A stretch of DNA of 62,812 bases from Bacteroidota bacterium (GCA_037139195.1 JBAXGW010000019.1:1-62812); one strand, 5' to 3'; positions 1,902 through 62,812 are shown, counted from the stretch's first letter. Notes: generated by a model from the letters alone, not told the origin. Made by a program: numbers and translations.

Positions 1902-2555
1902 ATGAGTGAAATTAAAGTTTTAGTTGTAGATGACCATGATATGGTTTTGTTGGGGGTAAAAACGTTGCTTTCATCCAGAGACGACATAAAAATTGTTGGA
2001 GTAGCTAAAAATGGCGAAGATGCTATTTTGAAAATTGCTGAATTAAAGCCAGATGTTGTAATTTTGGATATCGATTTACCTGATATGTCGGGTTTAGAGG
2101 TTGCAAAACGATTAATTGCTAGCTCTCCATTAGTAAAAATATTATTTCACACTGCATTTATGGATGAAAAACACATTGTAGAAGGTTTTGAAACTGGAGC
2201 AATGGGTTATGTGCCTAAAAACTTCCAACCAGAAGAATTTATTGATGCAATTAAAACTGTAAATAATGGCGATAAATATTTGAAAGGTTCAGTTTCGGAA
2301 ATATTTTTAAAGAGCTATTTTAAAGCTAAGGATGAAAAAATCCTGTCGTTAAAATATAACAATCTTACAAAACGCGAAATAGAAATATTGAAGTTAGTAG
2401 GTGCAGGAGTTCCAAATACTGAGATAGCTAAAGATTTGTTTATTAGCACTAGAACTGTTGAAGCTCACAAAGCAAATATAATGGGTAAGCTTAACATAAA
2501 CACAACTGTTGAATTGGTTAAGTTTGCTATTAAAAACAAATTGGTAGTTTTATAA
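1902..2555 (+). CDS. Two-component response regulator, NarL/LuxR family (REC + HTH_LuxR)
   Basis: KVLVVDDHDMVLLGVK...DIDLPDMSG receiver motif with the phospho-accepting Asp context. C-terminal LTKREIEILKLVGAG...T helix-turn-helix. Confidence 0.85.
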   Translation: MSEIKVLVVDDHDMVLLGVKTLLSSRDDIKIVGVAKNGEDAILKIAELKPDVVILDIDLPDMSGLEVAKRLIASSPLVKILFHTAFMDEKHIVEGFETGAMGYVPKNFQPEEFIDAIKTVNNGDKYLKGSVSEIFLKSYFKAKDEKILSLKYNNLTKREIEILKLVGAGVPNTEIAKDLFISTRTVEAHKANIMGKLNINTTVELVKFAIKNKLVVL

Positions 2556-2562
2556 AATAAAT

Positions 2563-2766
2563 CACTATTGTCCGATTAAAACGATATGAAACAAAATCTT
2601 CAAAGATTTCTCACTTCGTTCGAAATGACTATCAAAAGGTTACGGATAAGAGGGCGGGCTTGATTGTGACGAAGTCGCAATCAAGCCCGCCCTCTTAGTT
2701 TCGTTGCAAAACCACCGTCATTTCGACCGCAGGGAGAAATCTAATATATTTTATCGGACAACAATG
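2563..2766 (+). repeat. Nested-palindromic MITE-like repeat element, copy A. The 14-bp TIR is cactattgtccgat/atcggacaacaatg, and the central GC-rich hairpin spans 2648-2696.
   Basis: Directly aligned with inverted copy B at 60488-60691 and partial copy C at 62762-62812. The conserved arms are reverse complements of each other. The central ~22-bp stem is GC-rich, in contrast to the AT-rich genome. Confidence 0.7.
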
Positions 2767-2782
2767 AAAATAAATAATATAC

Positions 2783-20493: not shown

Positions 20494-20518
20494 TTTACTA
20501 ATTTTTGAATACCATTAA

Positions 20519-20612
20519 TTCCGCAAGCTATTTTTTATTCCCTTGATAGACTTCGACTCCGCTTAGTCTGCGGTCTCTCTGAGCGTAGTCGAAGAGTATT
20601 TATTATTAATCA
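20519..20612 (+). repeat. REP-like intergenic repeat, family 2, copy 1
   Basis: About 90% identical over ~95 bp to 21270-21370, in the same orientation. Contains an internal inverted repeat (cttcgact...agtcgaag). Confidence 0.7.
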
Positions 20613-20651: not shown

Positions 20652-21239
20652 CTATTCTGCTTGTTCTTCCGAATTTAAATCTTCAATACTTTTGTTATTA
20701 ATGCCTTTGCCAACAACTAAATTTATTGTTGCTCCCTTTTCAATTTGGCTACCAGCAGTTATTTCATGTCCTTTATATTGTTGTCTTAAAACTGCATTTT
20801 CGGCAATGTCTTTCACGTATTCTAATCGCCCCAGCCTCAAACCATTCGACTCAAGAATAGTTGTAGCTTGCTTAAGCGAAAGGTCTATTAAATTCGGCAT
20901 TTTTGTAATTTCTTTAGTTTTTGAAGTAACAGTAAGATAAATTATTCGTTCGGGTTTAACTTTTGAGCCCGAAATAGGGTCTTGTTCGGCAATAACTCCT
21001 TTTGGGAAATTTTCTTTATAAATAGTATCAATAATTTCGTATTTCAAATCTAAATTTTTCTCTTCAAACAATTTATCTACGTCTTCAACTGCCATCTTCG
21101 ATAAATCGGGAACTATTAAAATATCATTATGATTAGCATACGAAGCAATCATTTTCAATATAATCCAAAGTGCAATAATAATAAAAGCTGATGCTAATGC
21201 TAAATGAACTAAAACGGGTTTGTCTTTATAGAACGACAT
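20652..21239 (-). CDS. Stand-alone membrane-anchored PASTA-domain protein
   Basis: N-terminal TM helix. Two PASTA-like modules (ITKMPNLIDLSLKQATTILESNGLRLG; VPDLSKMAVEDVDKLFEEKNL). No kinase or PBP domain. Confidence 0.6.
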   Translation of the reverse strand: MSFYKDKPVLVHLALASAFIIIALWIILKMIASYANHNDILIVPDLSKMAVEDVDKLFEEKNLDLKYEIIDTIYKENFPKGVIAEQDPISGSKVKPERIIYLTVTSKTKEITKMPNLIDLSLKQATTILESNGLRLGRLEYVKDIAENAVLRQQYKGHEITAGSQIEKGATINLVVGKGINNKSIEDLNSEEQAE

Positions 21240-21269
21240 TTTTATTGTCTTTTTTAGTTGAACTTTAAA

Positions 21270-21370
21270 TCCGCAAACTATTTTTTATTCCCTTGATAGT
21301 CTTCGATTCCACTCAGTCTGCGGTCACTCTGAGCGTAGTCGAAAAGTATTTATTATTAATTCCTTGCGGA
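21270..21370 (+). repeat. REP-like intergenic repeat, family 2, copy 2, with terminal inverted ends tccgcaa/ttgcgga
   Basis: Aligned by eye to 20519-20612. Confidence 0.7.
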
Positions 21371-23983: not shown

Positions 23984-24193
23984 ATCACTGCCAAGATTTA
24001 CATTCTCTCTCCCGAGATGCGTATAATCACTCCCAAGATTGATATTCTCACTCCCGAGATTGAGTTTCTCTCTCCCGAGTTTTAATTTCTCATTCGGGAG
24101 ATTCAATTTCTTGCTTCCGAGATGCGTATTCTCACTTCCGAGATTCGATTTTATGGTTCGCACATTTATATTCTTAGTTCCGAGATATTGAAC
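23984..24193 (+). repeat. Degenerate tandem array of ten 21-bp units, consensus ctcNctcccgagatNNNNatt
   Basis: Units phased exactly every 21 bp from 23984. Unit 6 carries the core in inverted form (cattcgggag). The array overlaps a questionable minus-strand 85-aa ORF (23963-24220) encoding heptad NLGSENx repeats. Confidence 0.6.
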
Positions 24194-40079: not shown

Positions 40080-42917
40080 TTATTTAGTAATAAGCATTTT
40101 ACTTTGTATGCTTTTCCCGTTGCCAACAACATCAATATAATATAAACCATTATTAAAGTTGGTAATATCATAGTTAACAACTGAAACATTTTCAGTTTTG
40201 GTAATTTTCTTTTCAGATATCAATTGACCAAAAGTATTAAATATTTTTATTGTAACATCTCCAGAAACGGCTTCGCCTAAAGAAATATTAAAGTTACCAT
40301 TGCTAGGATTAGGATAAACATTGACCCCATTATTAGATGTAGGAGCGTGAACACCTACTGTGCCTTCTGGATTCCAAGCTGTAACGATATTAATTAAACT
40401 AGTATCTGAAACTAAACCATGAACATCAGCAGCTGTCCCTTTAACAAATACAGTATCCCAGTTACAACCAACACCATTGAAAGCAGGTGTAGTTACTCCA
40501 TTAGATGTTGTAGCAATTAAATGTTCAGTATGGTCATTAAGGTCTAATTTGATTTTATATTGACCGTCATTTACTAAGTTTCCAAACATATCTTTTCCAT
40601 CCCAAGTAAGATTATATGTGATAGTCCAGTTATTTACTGCTTTAGAATATTGAGATGCACCCGAAATTACGTCTGGAGCTAAGCCGCCAAAATCTTTTTC
40701 GTAGAAGAATAATTCATAAGCATGGTTAGCACCGTAATGAACAATTGTTTTAATAGGTTTATCATTCATATCAGTAATATATGCAGCAAATACAGAGCAA
40801 CTGTCATATTTAGGATTTGTATTTAAATTTTGAGCCGTTCTTTTAGTCGTAACTGCAACTGTTAAATTTCCTGCAGTTTTTGTTCCAGTCCATGATAATG
40901 CAGGGTAGGTTGTAGGTGTGTAAGATCCTGTGTTATATGTTGTACCTGTTGTTGTTGCAGTTGTTTTTCCTGTTCTATCGACAGCTTCGCCTTCAAAATC
41001 ATAAAGCATCTGAAGATTAGCAGTTGTTAATGGAGTTGTTATCGCATTTGGTGTGGCTTTAGCAGCTAGTTCTGCAGCTGTTTTACAAACATCCCAAACT
41101 CTAATTTCATCAATGTTACCATTAAAATATTCGCTTGTTATTTTAGTTGTTGTTACACCACCTGTTGTTGATTTAGTAGCTAGTTTTTGACCTCCAATAT
41201 ATTTAATACTTATAGGTGCAACTGTAGCCTTTACAACTAATGAATCTATAAACGAGCCATTTAAATAAAGTTTTAGCGAAGCATTATTGTATGTTAAAGC
41301 AAGATGATTCCAATGATTACTATGCAAAAGATTATATACTTTTTTGCTTAAATGCGTTGGGACCGTAGCTGCTAATGTATCAAATCCATAAGTAATTACA
41401 TGTGCATTGCTAATTGCAATATAAGGTGCTCTTCTGTATTTAGATGCTGTTGCACTGCCATCAACGCTGTCGTTTCCAAAAATGTAACCTGCAGAGGTAA
41501 GGCTGTTTGGCATTACAAATGCTTCAACAGTGAAGTTTTGACCTAAAATTGGACCATTGTTTATAGAAACATTTGTAGAGTCAATTCTTGAAAAATTCAT
41601 TGAATGAGTCTGATTTGTTGGATTCCAAGCCATACTTATATTCAATAAACTAGTATCAGAAACAGTTCCATGAACATCTGCAGCCATTCCTTTTACAAAA
41701 ACTGTATCCCAGTTGCAGCCAACACCATTGAACGCAGGCGTTGTGACCCCATTAGATGTTGTTGCAAGTAAATGTTCAGTATGGTCATTAAGGTCTAATT
41801 TCAATTTATATTGACCGTCGTTCACTAAATTGCCAAACATATCTTTTCCATCCCATGTAAGATTGTATGTAATTGTCCAGTTATTTACAGCTTTTGAATA
41901 TTGAGAAGCACCTGAAATTACATCTGGAGCCATTCCGCCAAAGTCTTTTTCGTAGAAGAATAATTCATACGCATGGTTAGCACCATAATGAACAAGTGTT
42001 TTAATAGGTTTGTCATTCATGTCAGTTATATAGGCCGCAAATACAGAACAACTATCGTATTTTGGATTTGTATTTAAGTTTTGTGCTGTTCTTTTAGTTG
42101 TTACAGAAAAAGTTAATGTGCCATCTGTTTTTGTGCCAGTCCATGATAATGCAGGAAAAGATGTAGCTGTATATGATTCCGTACTATTAGTTGAGCCGGT
42201 GATAGTTGCTGTTGAATTACCTGTTTCATCAATAGCATCTCCATTAAAATCATAAAGCATTTTAAGATTTGGAGTAGTTAGAGGGGCTGTTATTGCATTT
42301 GGTGATGCGCTTGCAGTCAATTCAGCTGCTGATTTACAAACGTCCCAAACTCTAATTTCATCAATATTGCCATTAAAATATTCGCTTGTTATTTTAGTAG
42401 TTGTTACTCCACCAGTTGTTGATTTAGTAACTAGTTTTTGACCTCCAATATATTTAATTCTGATTGGAGCAACTGTAGTCTTTACAACTAATGAGTCTAT
42501 AAAAGAGCCATTTAAATAGAGTTTTAATGCAGTATTATTATAAGTTAAAGCAATATGATTCCAATGATTACTATGCAAAAGGTTATATACTTTTTTGCTT
42601 AAATGTGTTGGGACAGCAGCCACTAATGTATCGAATCCGTAAGTGATTACATGAGCATTGCTAACAGAAATATAAGGAGCTCTTCTGTATTTTGATGCTG
42701 TTGCGCTGGCATCTACACTGTCATTGCCAAAAATATATCCAGCAGAAGTGAGGCTAATTGGCTGAATAAAAGCCTCAATTGTGAAGTTTTGACCTAAAAT
42801 AGGTCCATTGTTAATTGTTACGTTTGTTGAATCAATTCTCGAAAAATTCAAAGAGTTTTGTGCGCCTGCTGCTCCAACAAAAAACAGCAAAATTAATCCA
42901 AGTAGGTGTTTTCTCAT
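40080..42917 (-). CDS. Large secreted protein: two tandem [LamG/concanavalin-like + DUF2271-like flavinylation (DVISGAS)] modules followed by a T9SS C-terminal sorting domain
   Basis: Signal peptide. Two ~420-aa modules about 90% identical. LamG hallmarks (NGNIDEIRVWD). DVISGAS in each module. C-terminal VNVYPNPSNGNFNISL...GLYYIDVV Por_Secre_tail. Confidence 0.65.
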   Translation of the reverse strand: MRKHLLGLILLFFVGAAGAQNSLNFSRIDSTNVTINNGPILGQNFTIEAFIQPISLTSAGYIFGNDSVDASATASKYRRAPYISVSNAHVITYGFDTLVAAVPTHLSKKVYNLLHSNHWNHIALTYNNTALKLYLNGSFIDSLVVKTTVAPIRIKYIGGQKLVTKSTTGGVTTTKITSEYFNGNIDEIRVWDVCKSAAELTASASPNAITAPLTTPNLKMLYDFNGDAIDETGNSTATITGSTNSTESYTATSFPALSWTGTKTDGTLTFSVTTKRTAQNLNTNPKYDSCSVFAAYITDMNDKPIKTLVHYGANHAYELFFYEKDFGGMAPDVISGASQYSKAVNNWTITYNLTWDGKDMFGNLVNDGQYKLKLDLNDHTEHLLATTSNGVTTPAFNGVGCNWDTVFVKGMAADVHGTVSDTSLLNISMAWNPTNQTHSMNFSRIDSTNVSINNGPILGQNFTVEAFVMPNSLTSAGYIFGNDSVDGSATASKYRRAPYIAISNAHVITYGFDTLAATVPTHLSKKVYNLLHSNHWNHLALTYNNASLKLYLNGSFIDSLVVKATVAPISIKYIGGQKLATKSTTGGVTTTKITSEYFNGNIDEIRVWDVCKTAAELAAKATPNAITTPLTTANLQMLYDFEGEAVDRTGKTTATTTGTTYNTGSYTPTTYPALSWTGTKTAGNLTVAVTTKRTAQNLNTNPKYDSCSVFAAYITDMNDKPIKTIVHYGANHAYELFFYEKDFGGLAPDVISGASQYSKAVNNWTITYNLTWDGKDMFGNLVNDGQYKIKLDLNDHTEHLIATTSNGVTTPAFNGVGCNWDTVFVKGTAADVHGLVSDTSLINIVTAWNPEGTVGVHAPTSNNGVNVYPNPSNGNFNISLGEAVSGDVTIKIFNTFGQLISEKKITKTENVSVVNYDITNFNNGLYYIDVVGNGKSIQSKMLITK
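40376..42895. repeat. Direct tandem duplication of ~1.26 kb inside the gene (units at roughly 40376-41634 and 41636-42895, ~90% nucleotide identity)
   Basis: Long collinear stretches of the two DNA segments align directly (for example 40381-40900 against 41641-42160). Confidence 0.8.
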
Positions 42918-60450: not shown

Positions 60451-60480
60451 AAAAAGCCACTTCAAAAGTGGCTTTTTTAT
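60451..60480 (+). terminator. Rho-independent terminator
   Basis: aaaaa-agccactt-caa-aagtggct-tttttat. Confidence 0.65.
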
Positions 60481-60487
60481 TTAATAC

Positions 60488-60691
60488 CATTGTTGTCCGG
60501 AAAAATAATATAAGATTCCTCCCTGCGGTCGGAATGACAATAAGTTGAGGAGAAAAAAGGAGAGAGGGGGTTGTCGGTGGCAAAGCCACCGACAACCCCC
60601 TCTTCCTAACCATAATATATTGATAGTCATTTCGAACGAAGTGAGAAATCTTTGAAGATTTTGTTTCTTAAGTTTTAATCGGACAATATTG
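60488..60691 (-). repeat. Nested-palindromic MITE-like repeat element, copy B, inverted relative to copy A. The central GC hairpin spans 60563-60603.
   Basis: The TIR cattgttgtccgg...atcggacaatattg and both conserved arms match the reverse complement of 2563-2766. The central hairpin has a different sequence but the same structure. Confidence 0.7.
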
Positions 60692-60699
60692 ATTTAATA

Positions 60700-62673
60700 C
60701 TACTTAATATCCTCTTTCTTTTCAGTTTTAACTTCTTTCAGCTCTTTGCTTTTAGGATCCATCATTTCCATTAGTTTTAGCCCCAAAAGTCCATCTATAG
60801 AAGATCCGGAGCCATTTCCTCCGCCAATTAATACATCTGGTATAAGTTTAACATGACCTTTGGAAAGCTCTTCTGTTATTTTGTATTTTGTAAAATTTTC
60901 ACCGCCGAGTGCTTTAACAGCAAGTTCATAAGCTTCAGCAGTAGATTTTCCAATAGATAATATTTTGCCAGCTTCTGCTTCACCAGTAAGTGATATTTGT
61001 TCAGCTTGAGCCGAAGCTTTTAATTTAATAGCAATAGAATCTGCTTCTGCTCTTGCTTTTGTTGATTCAGCCTCGGCATGAGCTCTCATTTTTGTTGCTT
61101 CAGCTTCTGCACTTACAGCTAGTTTAACGCTAGCAGCATCACCTTCCGATTTTTTAACAGTTGCGTTAGCTGTTCGCTCTGCAATTTCAACACTTTGCTG
61201 TGCTTTAACAATGTCCTTTTGCATATCTGCAATTGCAGTTTCTTTTTCCATGCCCTGACGTGTTTCTTGAGCTTGCATTTGAGTGTCATAAGTAATTTTT
61301 TGTTCTTGTGCTAGCTTACGGTCTGTTAAGGTTTTCATTAAAGATTCTGGCGGAACAATATCCCCAATAAGGGTGTCAACTGCATTTACATTGTATTCAT
61401 CTAAAACCTTTTTAATATGCTCTTTTGCGGATATTTGTCTTTCCTTACGAGTACTTAAAAAAGCAATTACATCGCTATCTTGAGCAGAATTTCTAAAATA
61501 ATTTCCAATTGTTGGTTCTAATACCTGAGAAACAAGATTCACCATATTGCCAAATCTAGCAATTACCTTTGGTGCTTCTGTTGTTGGCACATGAATAATT
61601 TGTGAAACATCTAAATTAAAAGGGAATCCATCTTTTGAACGAACAGTGATAGTGGAAAGATTCTTATCGAGATTATGAGCTTCGCTACGTGCACTAGCCC
61701 AATTCAAAACAAGATTTGTAGTTGGAACCAATTCAACTTTCATAATGTATTTGTTGATTGGATATTTGCCAGGTCCAAGTGGCTCTAGCCAAACCCCTTT
61801 AAATCCTTTGTTTACAATATTTCCGTGCTTAAATTCAGTGCCAGTAAGGTCATGCCCTTCTTGACCAATATATGATATTACCACACCCACAAAACCAATT
61901 GCAATTTCAGTCATAGGAATTTCTTCAACTTGAACTGCCCATGGATTTAAATTGTAAGAACCAGCTAATATTACTTGAGGTTGCAAACCTCTGTTTCCTG
62001 AATTTTTTATAAATTGATCAAAATCCTGAAAATTATTATGACCCTCTGTTATTTTTCCAGCAATTTGACCTTCATCAATAGGCAATCCATCTAGAGTTGT
62101 TACTATTCCCACCATACTTTCTTGTATTCGAACCATACTGGTTATCGATACCTGAAAAAGCATTGTGTTAATACGATATGAGCCTGCAGTAATATAAGTA
62201 GTTTGGCGACCACGTTGTCCTCCATTATTTAAGAATTTTTCGGCATCTTGAAAACTGTCGCATTCTGCTCTTTGACCTAATATGTTTCCAGTTGGTATGC
62301 TAGCGCCATCTTTCGCTACTATCAATCCAATGTTTCCTTCAGGGATTATTGTAAATTGTTCCATTGTGATATCAAATTGCCAAACCCATTTGAAAAAGTA
62401 TAGTCCTGGTGCAAGTGTCTTGGCTTGAAAACCTGCTTCTCCAAGTGTTGCAATAATTCTTCCATCAGGTAGTTCTTTGTTATCGCCAAAAAGCACAAAC
62501 TTTTTTGTTACCAAGCCAATTCTGTCTTCGGGAACAATTATCATTCCAAATAAAAAGCGCAAAATAAACTTATATAAGGCAAGACAAATTACTACTAGCA
62601 GTATCCACCAGTAGCTCGTAATAAAATTTGAATCCATGTTTTTATTAATTAAATTTATACTATATTTAGGCAA
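60700..62673 (-). CDS. Flotillin-like SPFH/band-7 domain protein
   Basis: N-terminal TM helices, an SPFH domain and a long C-terminal Ala/Glu/Lys-rich coiled-coil (AEAEATKMRAHAEAESTKARAEADS). Confidence 0.7.
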   Translation of the reverse strand: MPKYSINLINKNMDSNFITSYWWILLVVICLALYKFILRFLFGMIIVPEDRIGLVTKKFVLFGDNKELPDGRIIATLGEAGFQAKTLAPGLYFFKWVWQFDITMEQFTIIPEGNIGLIVAKDGASIPTGNILGQRAECDSFQDAEKFLNNGGQRGRQTTYITAGSYRINTMLFQVSITSMVRIQESMVGIVTTLDGLPIDEGQIAGKITEGHNNFQDFDQFIKNSGNRGLQPQVILAGSYNLNPWAVQVEEIPMTEIAIGFVGVVISYIGQEGHDLTGTEFKHGNIVNKGFKGVWLEPLGPGKYPINKYIMKVELVPTTNLVLNWASARSEAHNLDKNLSTITVRSKDGFPFNLDVSQIIHVPTTEAPKVIARFGNMVNLVSQVLEPTIGNYFRNSAQDSDVIAFLSTRKERQISAKEHIKKVLDEYNVNAVDTLIGDIVPPESLMKTLTDRKLAQEQKITYDTQMQAQETRQGMEKETAIADMQKDIVKAQQSVEIAERTANATVKKSEGDAASVKLAVSAEAEATKMRAHAEAESTKARAEADSIAIKLKASAQAEQISLTGEAEAGKILSIGKSTAEAYELAVKALGGENFTKYKITEELSKGHVKLIPDVLIGGGNGSGSSIDGLLGLKLMEMMDPKSKELKEVKTEKKEDIK

Positions 62674-62761: not shown

Positions 62762-62812
62762 CACTATTGTCCGATAAAATATTATTAAACAAAAACTTAA
62801 AAGATTTCTCAC
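62762..62812 (+). repeat. MITE-like repeat element, copy C (5' part only, truncated by the window end), in the same orientation as copy A
   Basis: cactattgtccgataaaa...aaagatttctcac matches the first ~50 bp of copy A. Confidence 0.55.

Follow-up and report, generated by a model that had tools for sequence, protein, structure and literature searches.

A family of miniature transposons in a Bacteroidota contig with paired tagged hairpins around a variable GC-rich palindrome

The window analyzed here is the whole 62,812-nucleotide contig JBAXGW010000019.1 from the metagenome-assembled genome (MAG) of a "Bacteroidota bacterium" (GCA_037139195.1), which contains several copies of a 204-bp repeat with nested palindromes. 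This repeat is a genuine MITE (miniature inverted-repeat transposable element), a non-autonomous DNA transposon. Within it, two short AT-rich arms flank an 87-nt spacer whose center is a GC-rich palindrome. By their sequence, the arms resemble two copies of a widespread kind of hairpin, known as the CGTC-tagged repetitive extragenic palindrome (REP) or the Ssn-related motif (SRM), the latter being a target of small GIY-YIG nucleases. We consider it probable that the repeats are MITE copies carrying two SRM-type hairpins on either side of a palindrome that is maintained at the DNA level, and that they are not copies of an RNA gene.

Copies in the window and the wider MITE family

The window contains two full copies, A and B, and a third, partial copy C that is interrupted by the contig end, all located where the initial annotation had placed them; copy B is inverted relative to copies A and C (Table 1). 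When the three are aligned, their outer parts are nearly identical and the central ~85 nt are almost unalignable. Between copies A and B, identity amounts to 94% in the outer left part, 88% in the right part, and ~62% in the 5' arms of the central hairpin. The termini of copy A, cactattgtccgat and atcggacaacaatg, are complementary at 12 of 14 positions, in agreement with the 14-bp terminal inverted repeats (TIRs) described earlier. An end search of the window, allowing up to three mismatches, returned six matches against 1.3 expected. Four of these are element ends (both ends of A, one of B, and the left end of C), and the remaining two are three-mismatch sites elsewhere (16043 and 18525). The other end of copy B, CATTGTTGTCCGG, escaped this search. 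Both full copies lie between perfect 9-bp direct repeats, a feature that the initial annotation had missed, together with the self-folding of the arms and the fast divergence of the whole 87-nt center described below. The left target-site duplication (TSD) of copy A overlaps the stop codon of a response-regulator gene (1902-2555), and the second TSD of copy B abuts the stop of a flotillin gene (60700-62673, - strand).

Table 1. Parts of the three MITE copies in the window, with strand and basis of assignment
Feature	Coordinates	Strand	Basis
Left TSD of copy A, AAAATAAAT	2554..2562	.	direct reading
Copy A, complete 204-bp MITE	2563..2766	+	alignment, fold, TSD
Left TIR of copy A, CACTATTGTCCGAT	2563..2576	+	terminal helix 96% paired in family alignment
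Left arm of copy A, SRM/CGTC-REP-type hairpin unit, - strand reading GTCATTTCGAACGAAGTGAGAAATCT	2604..2629	-	unit covariation
GC-rich palindrome at the center of copy A, with one T.G pair in a 24-bp stem and a GAA loop	2647..2697	.	inverted-repeat scan
Right arm of copy A, hairpin unit GTCATTTCGACCGCAGGGAGAAATCT	2717..2742	+	helix 5: 4/7 pairs change both sides
Right TIR of copy A, ATCGGACAACAATG	2753..2766	+	end search, family alignment
Right TSD of copy A, AAAATAAAT	2767..2775	.	direct reading
First TSD of copy B, ATTTAATAC on + strand	60479..60487	.	direct reading
Copy B, complete 204-bp MITE, opposite orientation to copy A	60488..60691	-	alignment, fold, TSD
Arm of copy B, - strand reading GTCATTCCGACCGCAGGGAGGAATCT	60513..60538	-	stem ATTCC/GGAAT
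GC-rich palindrome at the center of copy B, with 19 perfect pairs and an AAA/TTT loop	60563..60603	.	inverted-repeat scan
Arm of copy B, unit GTCATTTCGAACGAAGTGAGAAATCT	60626..60651	+	direct reading
Second TSD of copy B, ATTTAATAC	60692..60700	.	direct reading
Copy C: left TIR 62762-62775, left-arm start 62802-62812	62762..62812	+	alignment, end search

Scanning metagenomes with the left-end pattern yielded 77 loci, about 50 of which hold full elements of ~200-204 bp with the termini CAnTATTGTCCGG...CCGGACAACAATG. The family termini can be written as 5'-CAnTATTGTCCG(G/A)...C(C/T)GGACAACAATG-3', with inverted CA...TG ends, and the terminal helix formed by the TIRs is 96% paired over 25 aligned copies. 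Homology between copies of the window family extends to the TIRs and ends there. Among 29 elements with distinct flanks, the TSD is perfect (9/9) in 15 and matches at no fewer than 8 of 9 positions in 19, and none of 174 shifted control comparisons reached 7/9. The duplicated targets are AT-rich and often end in AAT, and insertion is frequently near gene ends. All copies are intergenic and occur in both orientations, whether the neighboring genes are tandem, convergent, or divergent (gene contexts: ++ 5, -- 6, +- 3, -+ 4). Because TIRs and TSDs are present, we conclude that the copies arise by transposition; together with the intergenic position and the many dispersed copies, they substantiate the earlier "MITE-like" designation.

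The same 9-mer site is differently occupied in two strains whose flanks are 98% identical. Loci L140 (3050-3670) and L094 (6540-7420) share a site with the TSD TATGACAAT, where L140 carries the MITE and L094 carries a different MITE (ends CAATGYCGTTTAG) with a nested copy of the window-type MITE. Short-read contigs of the same organism, and of other assemblies, break at MITE copies. Deletion derivatives of 132-146 bp that lack the central palindrome are found at L089, L109, L128, and L146, and in L128 the deletion ends exactly at the stem boundaries; these derivatives are consistent with instability of the palindrome. The element is itself a target of insertion. In L148, an IS110-family transposase gene (PF01548 and PF02371; 339-1646) lies within the left arm hairpin of the MITE, with junctions at about 100 and about 1678. 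Since the same junctions, ...CACTTCGTT^ACCAATGACATAATT... and ...GCAACC^TCGAAATGAC, recur in three loci (L148, L099, and L121), the small arm hairpin is a site-specific IS110 target, as are REPs and dRS3.

A DDE transposase supplied in trans would mobilize the element. From the CA ends and the 9-bp TSD, a guess would place that enzyme in the IS4 family; the enzyme itself was not found. Across all loci, TIR pairs spaced 0.4-5 kb apart correspond only to other MITEs, solo ends, and chance matches, and all-against-all clustering of 1026 open reading frames (ORFs) revealed no recurrent transposase. Comparison of copy A with plasmids by blastn gave no match, and a TIR scan of viral contigs gave chance matches in phage genes only. 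A candidate autonomous element (L147/L155) was rejected, as it is a truncated copy adjoining a TPR/HTH gene. Using flotillin homologs, we searched for an empty insertion site and found no clear one; the protein is too conserved, and the nearest relatives (92% and 90%) lack synteny in the intergenic DNA. One locus from this search, L080, resembles an unoccupied site, loosely at best.

In its general architecture, the element is like Correia/NEMIS and other bacterial MITEs, which are short, non-coding, TIR-bounded, TSD-flanked, intergenic, and able to fold as long hairpins. Correia elements have a TA duplication and an integration host factor (IHF) site, whereas the element described here has a 9-bp duplication, nuclease-target-type hairpins, and a GC palindrome. 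The initial annotation had also proposed an integron attC-like or IS200/IS605 end-like hairpin; an IS200/IS605-type end (palindrome-associated transposable element, PATE) would be processed by a Y1 HUH transposase. The imperfect nested palindromes would fold in single-stranded DNA (ssDNA), and REP-like hairpins are Y1 enzyme substrates in other systems (PMC6006769). Nevertheless, neither mechanism is compatible with TIRs and a 9-bp TSD, and we regard this origin as extremely improbable. Furthermore, there are no GTTRRRY core sites, cassette array, or intI, the copies lying between housekeeping genes; the tag of the arms is GTC, not GTAG, and no Y1_Tnp domain recurs among 122 neighboring ORFs.

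The arm hairpins and their association with GIY-YIG nucleases

The arms of each copy are individual hairpins that are arranged head-to-head in the element. In copy A, the two arms (2604-2629 and 2717-2742) are reverse-complementary at 23 of 26 positions. The earlier view of them as near reverse complements thus holds, but they are not mere AT-rich inverted repeats, as each corresponds to a tagged hairpin. The unit comprises ~26 nt of the form (T/C)GTC-AT(xyz)-GA-[insert]-GA-(x'y'z')AT-C(T), in which the stem AT(T/C)(T/C)C forms five pairs, followed by tandem G.A and A.G pairs and an NN-GNA-NN cap. The stem triplets covary: TTC occurs with GAA in 212 of 240 units and TCC with GGA in 43 of 55, with cross-combinations at about zero. 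Such covariation is also seen within the window, between the arm stem ATTCC/GGAAT of copy B (60513-60538) and ATTTC/GAAAT of copy A. Among 454 units, the tandem G.A (GA/GA) is present in 355, a C directly follows the stem in 380 (a position left free in the search), and a T precedes GTC in 317. Inserts of 7 nt close by two Watson-Crick pairs around a GNA-type loop in 202 of 227 cases, and other inserts form a longer hairpin. GTCAT is invariant in the 25 aligned copies. When these 25 MITEs are analyzed by RNAalifold, either arm forms a hairpin of its own, and the right arm shows compensatory changes (helix 5, four of seven pairs).

A genome scan for the arm-spacer-arm pattern identified 77 loci, which span Bacteroidota, Ignavibacteriota, Syntrophaceae, other Deltaproteobacteria, Clostridia, the Candidate Phyla Radiation (CPR), Armatimonadota, and Campylobacterota. 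Across these phyla the arm-palindrome-arm core is kept and the outer parts are not. Polaribacter sp. Z022, Maribacter, and Flagellimonas are among the carriers that can be cultivated.

The units share several features with the CGTC-tagged REPs cataloged by Di Nocera in 2013 without a dedicated enzyme (PMC3733652), a group that includes dRS3 of Neisseria and RPE-4/6 of Rickettsia. Both have an unpaired (C/T)GTC tag, a stem starting from A-T and T-A, and a short 3' tail. The cataloged REPs are likewise mostly head-to-head dimers with spacers of 20-100 bp that may hold stem-loops, and they occur in Bacteroidetes and several other phyla with no associated transposase. In contrast to their 8-9 continuous pairs, 4-5-nt loops, and CCA tail (PMC3733652), the units described here have five pairs, G.A/A.G, two further pairs, a 3-nt loop, and a CT tail, and their dimers sit within a transposon that is bounded by TIRs of its own and by a 9-bp TSD.

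In 2025, SsnA was shown to cut one subset of these palindromes, the Neisseria NTS/SRM hairpins, as ssDNA (Chenal 2025, PMC11893778). SsnA is a single-domain GIY-YIG protein that binds and cuts ssDNA but not double-stranded DNA or RNA. Its cut site lies just 5' of the GTC-tagged NTS hairpin CGTCATTCCCGCG..GCGGGAATC; cutting relies on the 3 nt preceding the palindrome, and binding on the C following it. Ssn homologs across bacteria are flanked by SRMs, and these nucleases have been shown to cut DNA, never to transpose it; MITEs and dimers are not mentioned in that study (PMC11893778). The units described here share with SRM/NTS the HGTC tag, the A-T/T-A stem start (ATTCC...GGAAT in many copies), the conserved C after the palindrome, the hundreds of dispersed copies, and the presence of units on both sides of a small single-domain GIY-YIG gene. 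They differ in that a conserved tandem G.A breaks the stem, whose cap is either a two-pair mini-stem closing a GNA triloop or a longer insert. They are also fixed head-to-head around a long GC palindrome and, in the window, lie inside a TIR/TSD MITE with no ssn gene nearby.

Our evidence for a link to GIY-YIG genes comes from the neighborhoods of the units. A Pfam scan of 122 ORFs adjoining units detected no recurrent transposase and two small GIY-YIG proteins, and both of the corresponding genes are bracketed on each side by complete arm-palindrome-arm cores. By tblastn of a homolog against all fetched loci, the gene was found in 6 of the 77 pattern-fetched genome loci, each time surrounded by 4-22 units that lie within 600 nt. 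More than 1100 GIY-YIG homologs were returned by a protein search, many of them on contigs of 0.5-3 kb. In many homologs, the predicted C-terminus is a read-through of one arm (...EIPPSSRND...), of the GGCGGC-GAA/TTC-GCCGCC apex of the palindrome (GGEAA or GGFAA), and of the second arm (VISSEARNL, HSERSEES). In all four further homolog families that were inspected, units or full cores lie beside the gene. Tandem arrays of full cores flank GIY-YIG genes at L184-L193 (one locus in ten samples), L041 (800-1900), and L019 (6560-7560), and the number and spacing of downstream cores vary between samples of one GIY-YIG locus.

NCBIfam and PDB searches do not name this GIY-YIG family, giving only sub-threshold matches to group I intron endonucleases and UvrC and a weak match to UPF0213 (1zg2). 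One Bacteroidota protein, P0163, matches an N. gonorrhoeae gene with 46.5% identity (E = 1e-17, 83% coverage), and that gene is surrounded by nine exact NTS repeats and is taken to be ssnA. On the strength of this match, we regard the Bacteroidota GIY-YIG proteins as Ssn-family homologs. Homologs with the linked hairpin variant occur in Bacteroidota, Ignavibacteriota, and Syntrophaceae.

We hypothesize that, in ssDNA, a sense-strand unit would fold on each strand of the element. At the folded unit, a putative cognate Ssn-like nuclease, encoded at another place in the genome, would bind and nick the DNA a few nucleotides 5' of GTC. The arrangement also recalls REPIN/BIME elements (REP doublets and bacterial interspersed mosaic elements) and their REP-associated tyrosine transposases (RAYTs) (Bertels & Rainey 2011; Gilson; Ton-Hoang). 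Like them, the element has two inverted palindromic units with a spacer, foldable as one long hairpin; its copies are numerous and intergenic; units lie on both sides of a candidate single-copy nuclease gene; and an IS110-family element targets the units. However, the tag is GTC rather than GTAG, the enzyme is a GIY-YIG rather than a Y1 HUH protein, and TIRs and TSDs are present, so that the inverted doublet is the one defining REPIN feature found here.

Maintenance of the central palindrome

The palindrome varies between 16 and 28 bp in the family. Over 83 distinct stems, the mean length is 21.5 bp and 97.9% of pairs are Watson-Crick, compared with 45.5% when partners are swapped. The initial annotation had stated that the central hairpin changes its sequence completely while keeping its pairing, and the kept pairing is confirmed by copies A and B, whose 5' arms are only ~62% alike and whose stems are perfect apart from the single T.G pair in A. 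It had also asked for compensatory substitutions, and these are abundant: in the 25-sequence alignment, 13 of 16 central pairs change on both sides, and a one-sided change is found in three cells only. None of 500 shuffles reaches the observed value, and sliding the partner by 1-3 columns lowers pairing to 31-49%.

The 5' arm of every palindrome is keto-rich on either strand (G 52%, T 16%, A 20%, C 12%), and in most copies the unpaired flanks are T-rich on the 5' side and A-rich on the 3' side, again on both strands; a terminator would show the opposite. The 3-nt loop is TTC or its reverse complement GAA on copies with identical upper stems, and both loop forms are also found beside GIY-YIG genes. 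In L103, the apex has been replaced by an unrelated perfect palindrome, compared with L098. Between close pairs of copies, identity is 90-95% at the ends, 80% in the hairpin arm, and 74-79% in the unpaired spacer flanks. Because the hairpin arm and the spacer flanks diverge alike, the palindrome is not uniquely fast-evolving; the whole 87-nt center, beyond the hairpin alone, diverges faster than the ends. In L136, L148 (1-60), L151, and L157, the assemblies degenerate to poly-G/poly-C exactly at the GC palindrome, and these runs are probably sequencing or assembly artifacts at the hairpin.

Quasi-palindrome template switching and intra-element conversion or inversion are established mechanisms. 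The palindrome could be kept perfect by such DNA-level copying from arm to arm (template switching, intra-element gene conversion, and inversion), with no need for selection on an RNA fold. The ends and arms would be conserved since copies need them to propagate or to be recognized, and the center would be free to drift. The lack of a G.T excess (among non-Watson-Crick pairs in the 83 stems, G.T 14, A.C 12, other 11), the scarcity of one-sided changes, the inverted loop, the random orientation, and the apex replacement all point to DNA-level maintenance as a better fit than selection on a transcript.

The same data bear on whether the repeat is a structured RNA, such as a small RNA, an attenuator, or a riboswitch-like leader, with the covariation reflecting selection on the RNA fold. 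The covariation is strong and the predicted folds are very stable (copy A, -93.2 kcal/mol, z = -13.5; copy B, -79.3 kcal/mol, z = -9.5, each against shuffles). We nonetheless consider an RNA highly unlikely. There is no enrichment of G.U-type pairs over A.C, hardly any change affects one side only, sister copies carry the loop in inverse orientations, and the copies show no orientation or position bias relative to genes. The window has no Rfam 15 match at the gathering threshold, and raising E up to 10 gave only chance-level miRNA/sRNA matches. In addition, the TIRs and TSDs show that the copies come from transposition, and the tandem G.A and GTC tag match a motif recognized in ssDNA by an enzyme that does not recognize RNA (PMC11893778). 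The suggestion of a small RNA or attenuator is therefore not upheld. Of the inference that a fold rather than a sequence is selected, the "recombination/cruciform site" part proves nearer the truth than the RNA part.

A benefit to the host provides another explanation. As has been suggested for REP/BIME and Correia elements, the GC hairpin would serve the ends of genes as a portable terminator, insulator, or mRNA-stabilizing stem-loop. Copies A and B lie 8-9 nt past the stops of the response-regulator and flotillin genes, in the sense of those genes, and their hairpins pass a lenient terminator scan in that direction. Palindromes of the form A-tract / GC stem / T-tract, typical of bidirectional terminators, are present in L001, L011, and L041. 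However, canonical terminators (2785-2818 for A, 60452-60478 for B) already adjoin both insertions, and the flanks in most members have the composition opposite to that of a terminator. Moreover, 4 of 18 classifiable copies lie between divergent genes, orientation is random, and the hairpin-less derivatives L089, L128, L146, and L109 persist. Taken together, these properties make a host function of this kind quite improbable.

Several points weigh against our interpretation of the repeats as MITEs with SRM-type hairpins and a DNA-maintained palindrome. None of 371 units fits the search string published for SRMs, whereas the NTS control fits it; tblastn detects no ssn-like gene in the 62.8-kb window; and the search for a cognate transposase that had been recommended found none with matching TIRs in 1.1 Mb of fetched loci, plasmids, and viral contigs. 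Some selection is suggested by the lastingly high GC content, by the G-richness of the 5' arm, and by the fact that most copies have kept the palindrome across orders; a DNA-level mechanism alone does not account for this. Two further points also count against our interpretation: Watson-Crick-only pairing would be expected as well under selection in transcripts of both strands, and, read in the direction of the neighboring gene, the hairpins of copies A and B are followed by a weakly T-rich tail. The palindrome could serve as a terminator for the ssn gene or as a folding nucleus, or it could be a by-product of nicking and repair.

The core in other elements and its significance

The arm-palindrome-arm core is also found in elements with other ends. 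A second MITE family of ~240 bp carries the same core between the ends (T)TAGAAACTGTTTAAATTTT, at L002, L014, L024, L031, L043, and L051 (Tenuifilaceae) and at L023, L037, and L039 (Rikenellaceae). Its TSD is a 3-bp TTA/TAA (TNA) and is perfect in five of eight copies. The core occurs with still other outer sequences in other MAGs. Conversely, L094 (6631-6870) has window-type TIRs around an unrelated interior made of other TGTC-tagged hairpins. Two explanations offer themselves, namely repeated capture of the core and movement of the core by itself. L001/L021 had been regarded as a case of the core repeated without an outer module, and was dropped, as homology continues past the arms once the orientation is flipped.

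Such modularity raises the possibility that the core itself is the mobile or selected entity, similar to a REPIN/REPtron and driven on ssDNA by an Ssn-like GIY-YIG nuclease or a RAYT, with the TIRs and TSDs belonging to the MITE "vehicles" it has invaded. The occurrence of the core in at least two MITE families, one with CA...TG ends and a 9-bp TSD and the other with a TNA TSD, fits this idea, as do the other outer sequences, the different interior between the same type of TIRs in L094, the tandem arrays beside GIY-YIG genes with a core number varying by sample, and the conservation across phyla of the core and not of the outer parts. On the other hand, it is the outer TIRs that define the conservation and the TSD of the window family, with homology stopping at the TIRs, and no vehicle-free insertion of the core has been demonstrated. 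There is also no RAYT among the 122 neighboring ORFs, and Ssn nucleases are known to cut, not to transpose, DNA (PMC11893778). On balance, we find this unlikely.

A more specific proposal, which we put forward as a speculative and rather doubtful possibility, is that the cassette is the self-propagating substrate of a Bacteroidota-centered clade of Ssn-like GIY-YIG nucleases. It would then represent a "REPtron" whose enzyme is of the GIY-YIG and not of the HUH type, and it would spread by invading unrelated DDE-type MITEs (the 9-bp-TSD and TNA-TSD vehicles) or by hitch-hiking in them. Under this proposal, nicks on opposite strands flanking the palindrome, followed by fold-back or template-switch repair, would keep regenerating a palindrome that is perfect yet variable in sequence. 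If true, the proposal would explain the flip-flop loops, the wholesale replacement of the apex, and the missing wobble intermediates.

Apart from the MITE copies, the window contains three other repeats. A 21-nt tandem repeat of 6-7 units (about AGATTnAnTTTCTCnCTCCCGAGATT) at 23994-24145 lies in or beside an 85-aa ORF (- strand) with no Pfam match. A 109-nt direct repeat with 87% identity (20502-20610 and 21252-21360) flanks a 195-aa PASTA-domain ORF (20652-21239, - strand), and a 300-nt internal duplication with 86% identity (40368-40667 and 41619-41918) lies in a 945-aa ORF (40080-42917, - strand).

A full-text literature search for the arm sequences found no paper, and the literature on MITEs in Bacteroidetes and REPs in Bacteroidota yielded nothing specific to this family. 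MITEs and CGTC-REP/SRM hairpins are known kinds of element, and it is their combination that appears to be new to the literature searched: a divergent SRM variant, a fixed head-to-head pair of such hairpins around a self-correcting GC palindrome, and two unrelated MITE vehicles.

Our interpretation of the repeats as MITEs with SRM-type hairpins extends the picture of Ssn systems in three respects. It adds a divergent hairpin variant, with tandem G.A and a GNA triloop, that the published string misses and that is nevertheless linked to Ssn homologs; it shows the hairpins as a fixed head-to-head pair around a GC palindrome; and it indicates that ordinary TIR/TSD MITEs of at least two kinds carry this cassette around genomes. 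The results also carry a caution: a palindrome can acquire perfect compensatory covariation through events at the DNA level, and such covariation is not necessarily a sign of RNA. Finally, they supply concrete substrates and proteins with which Ssn systems may be tested.

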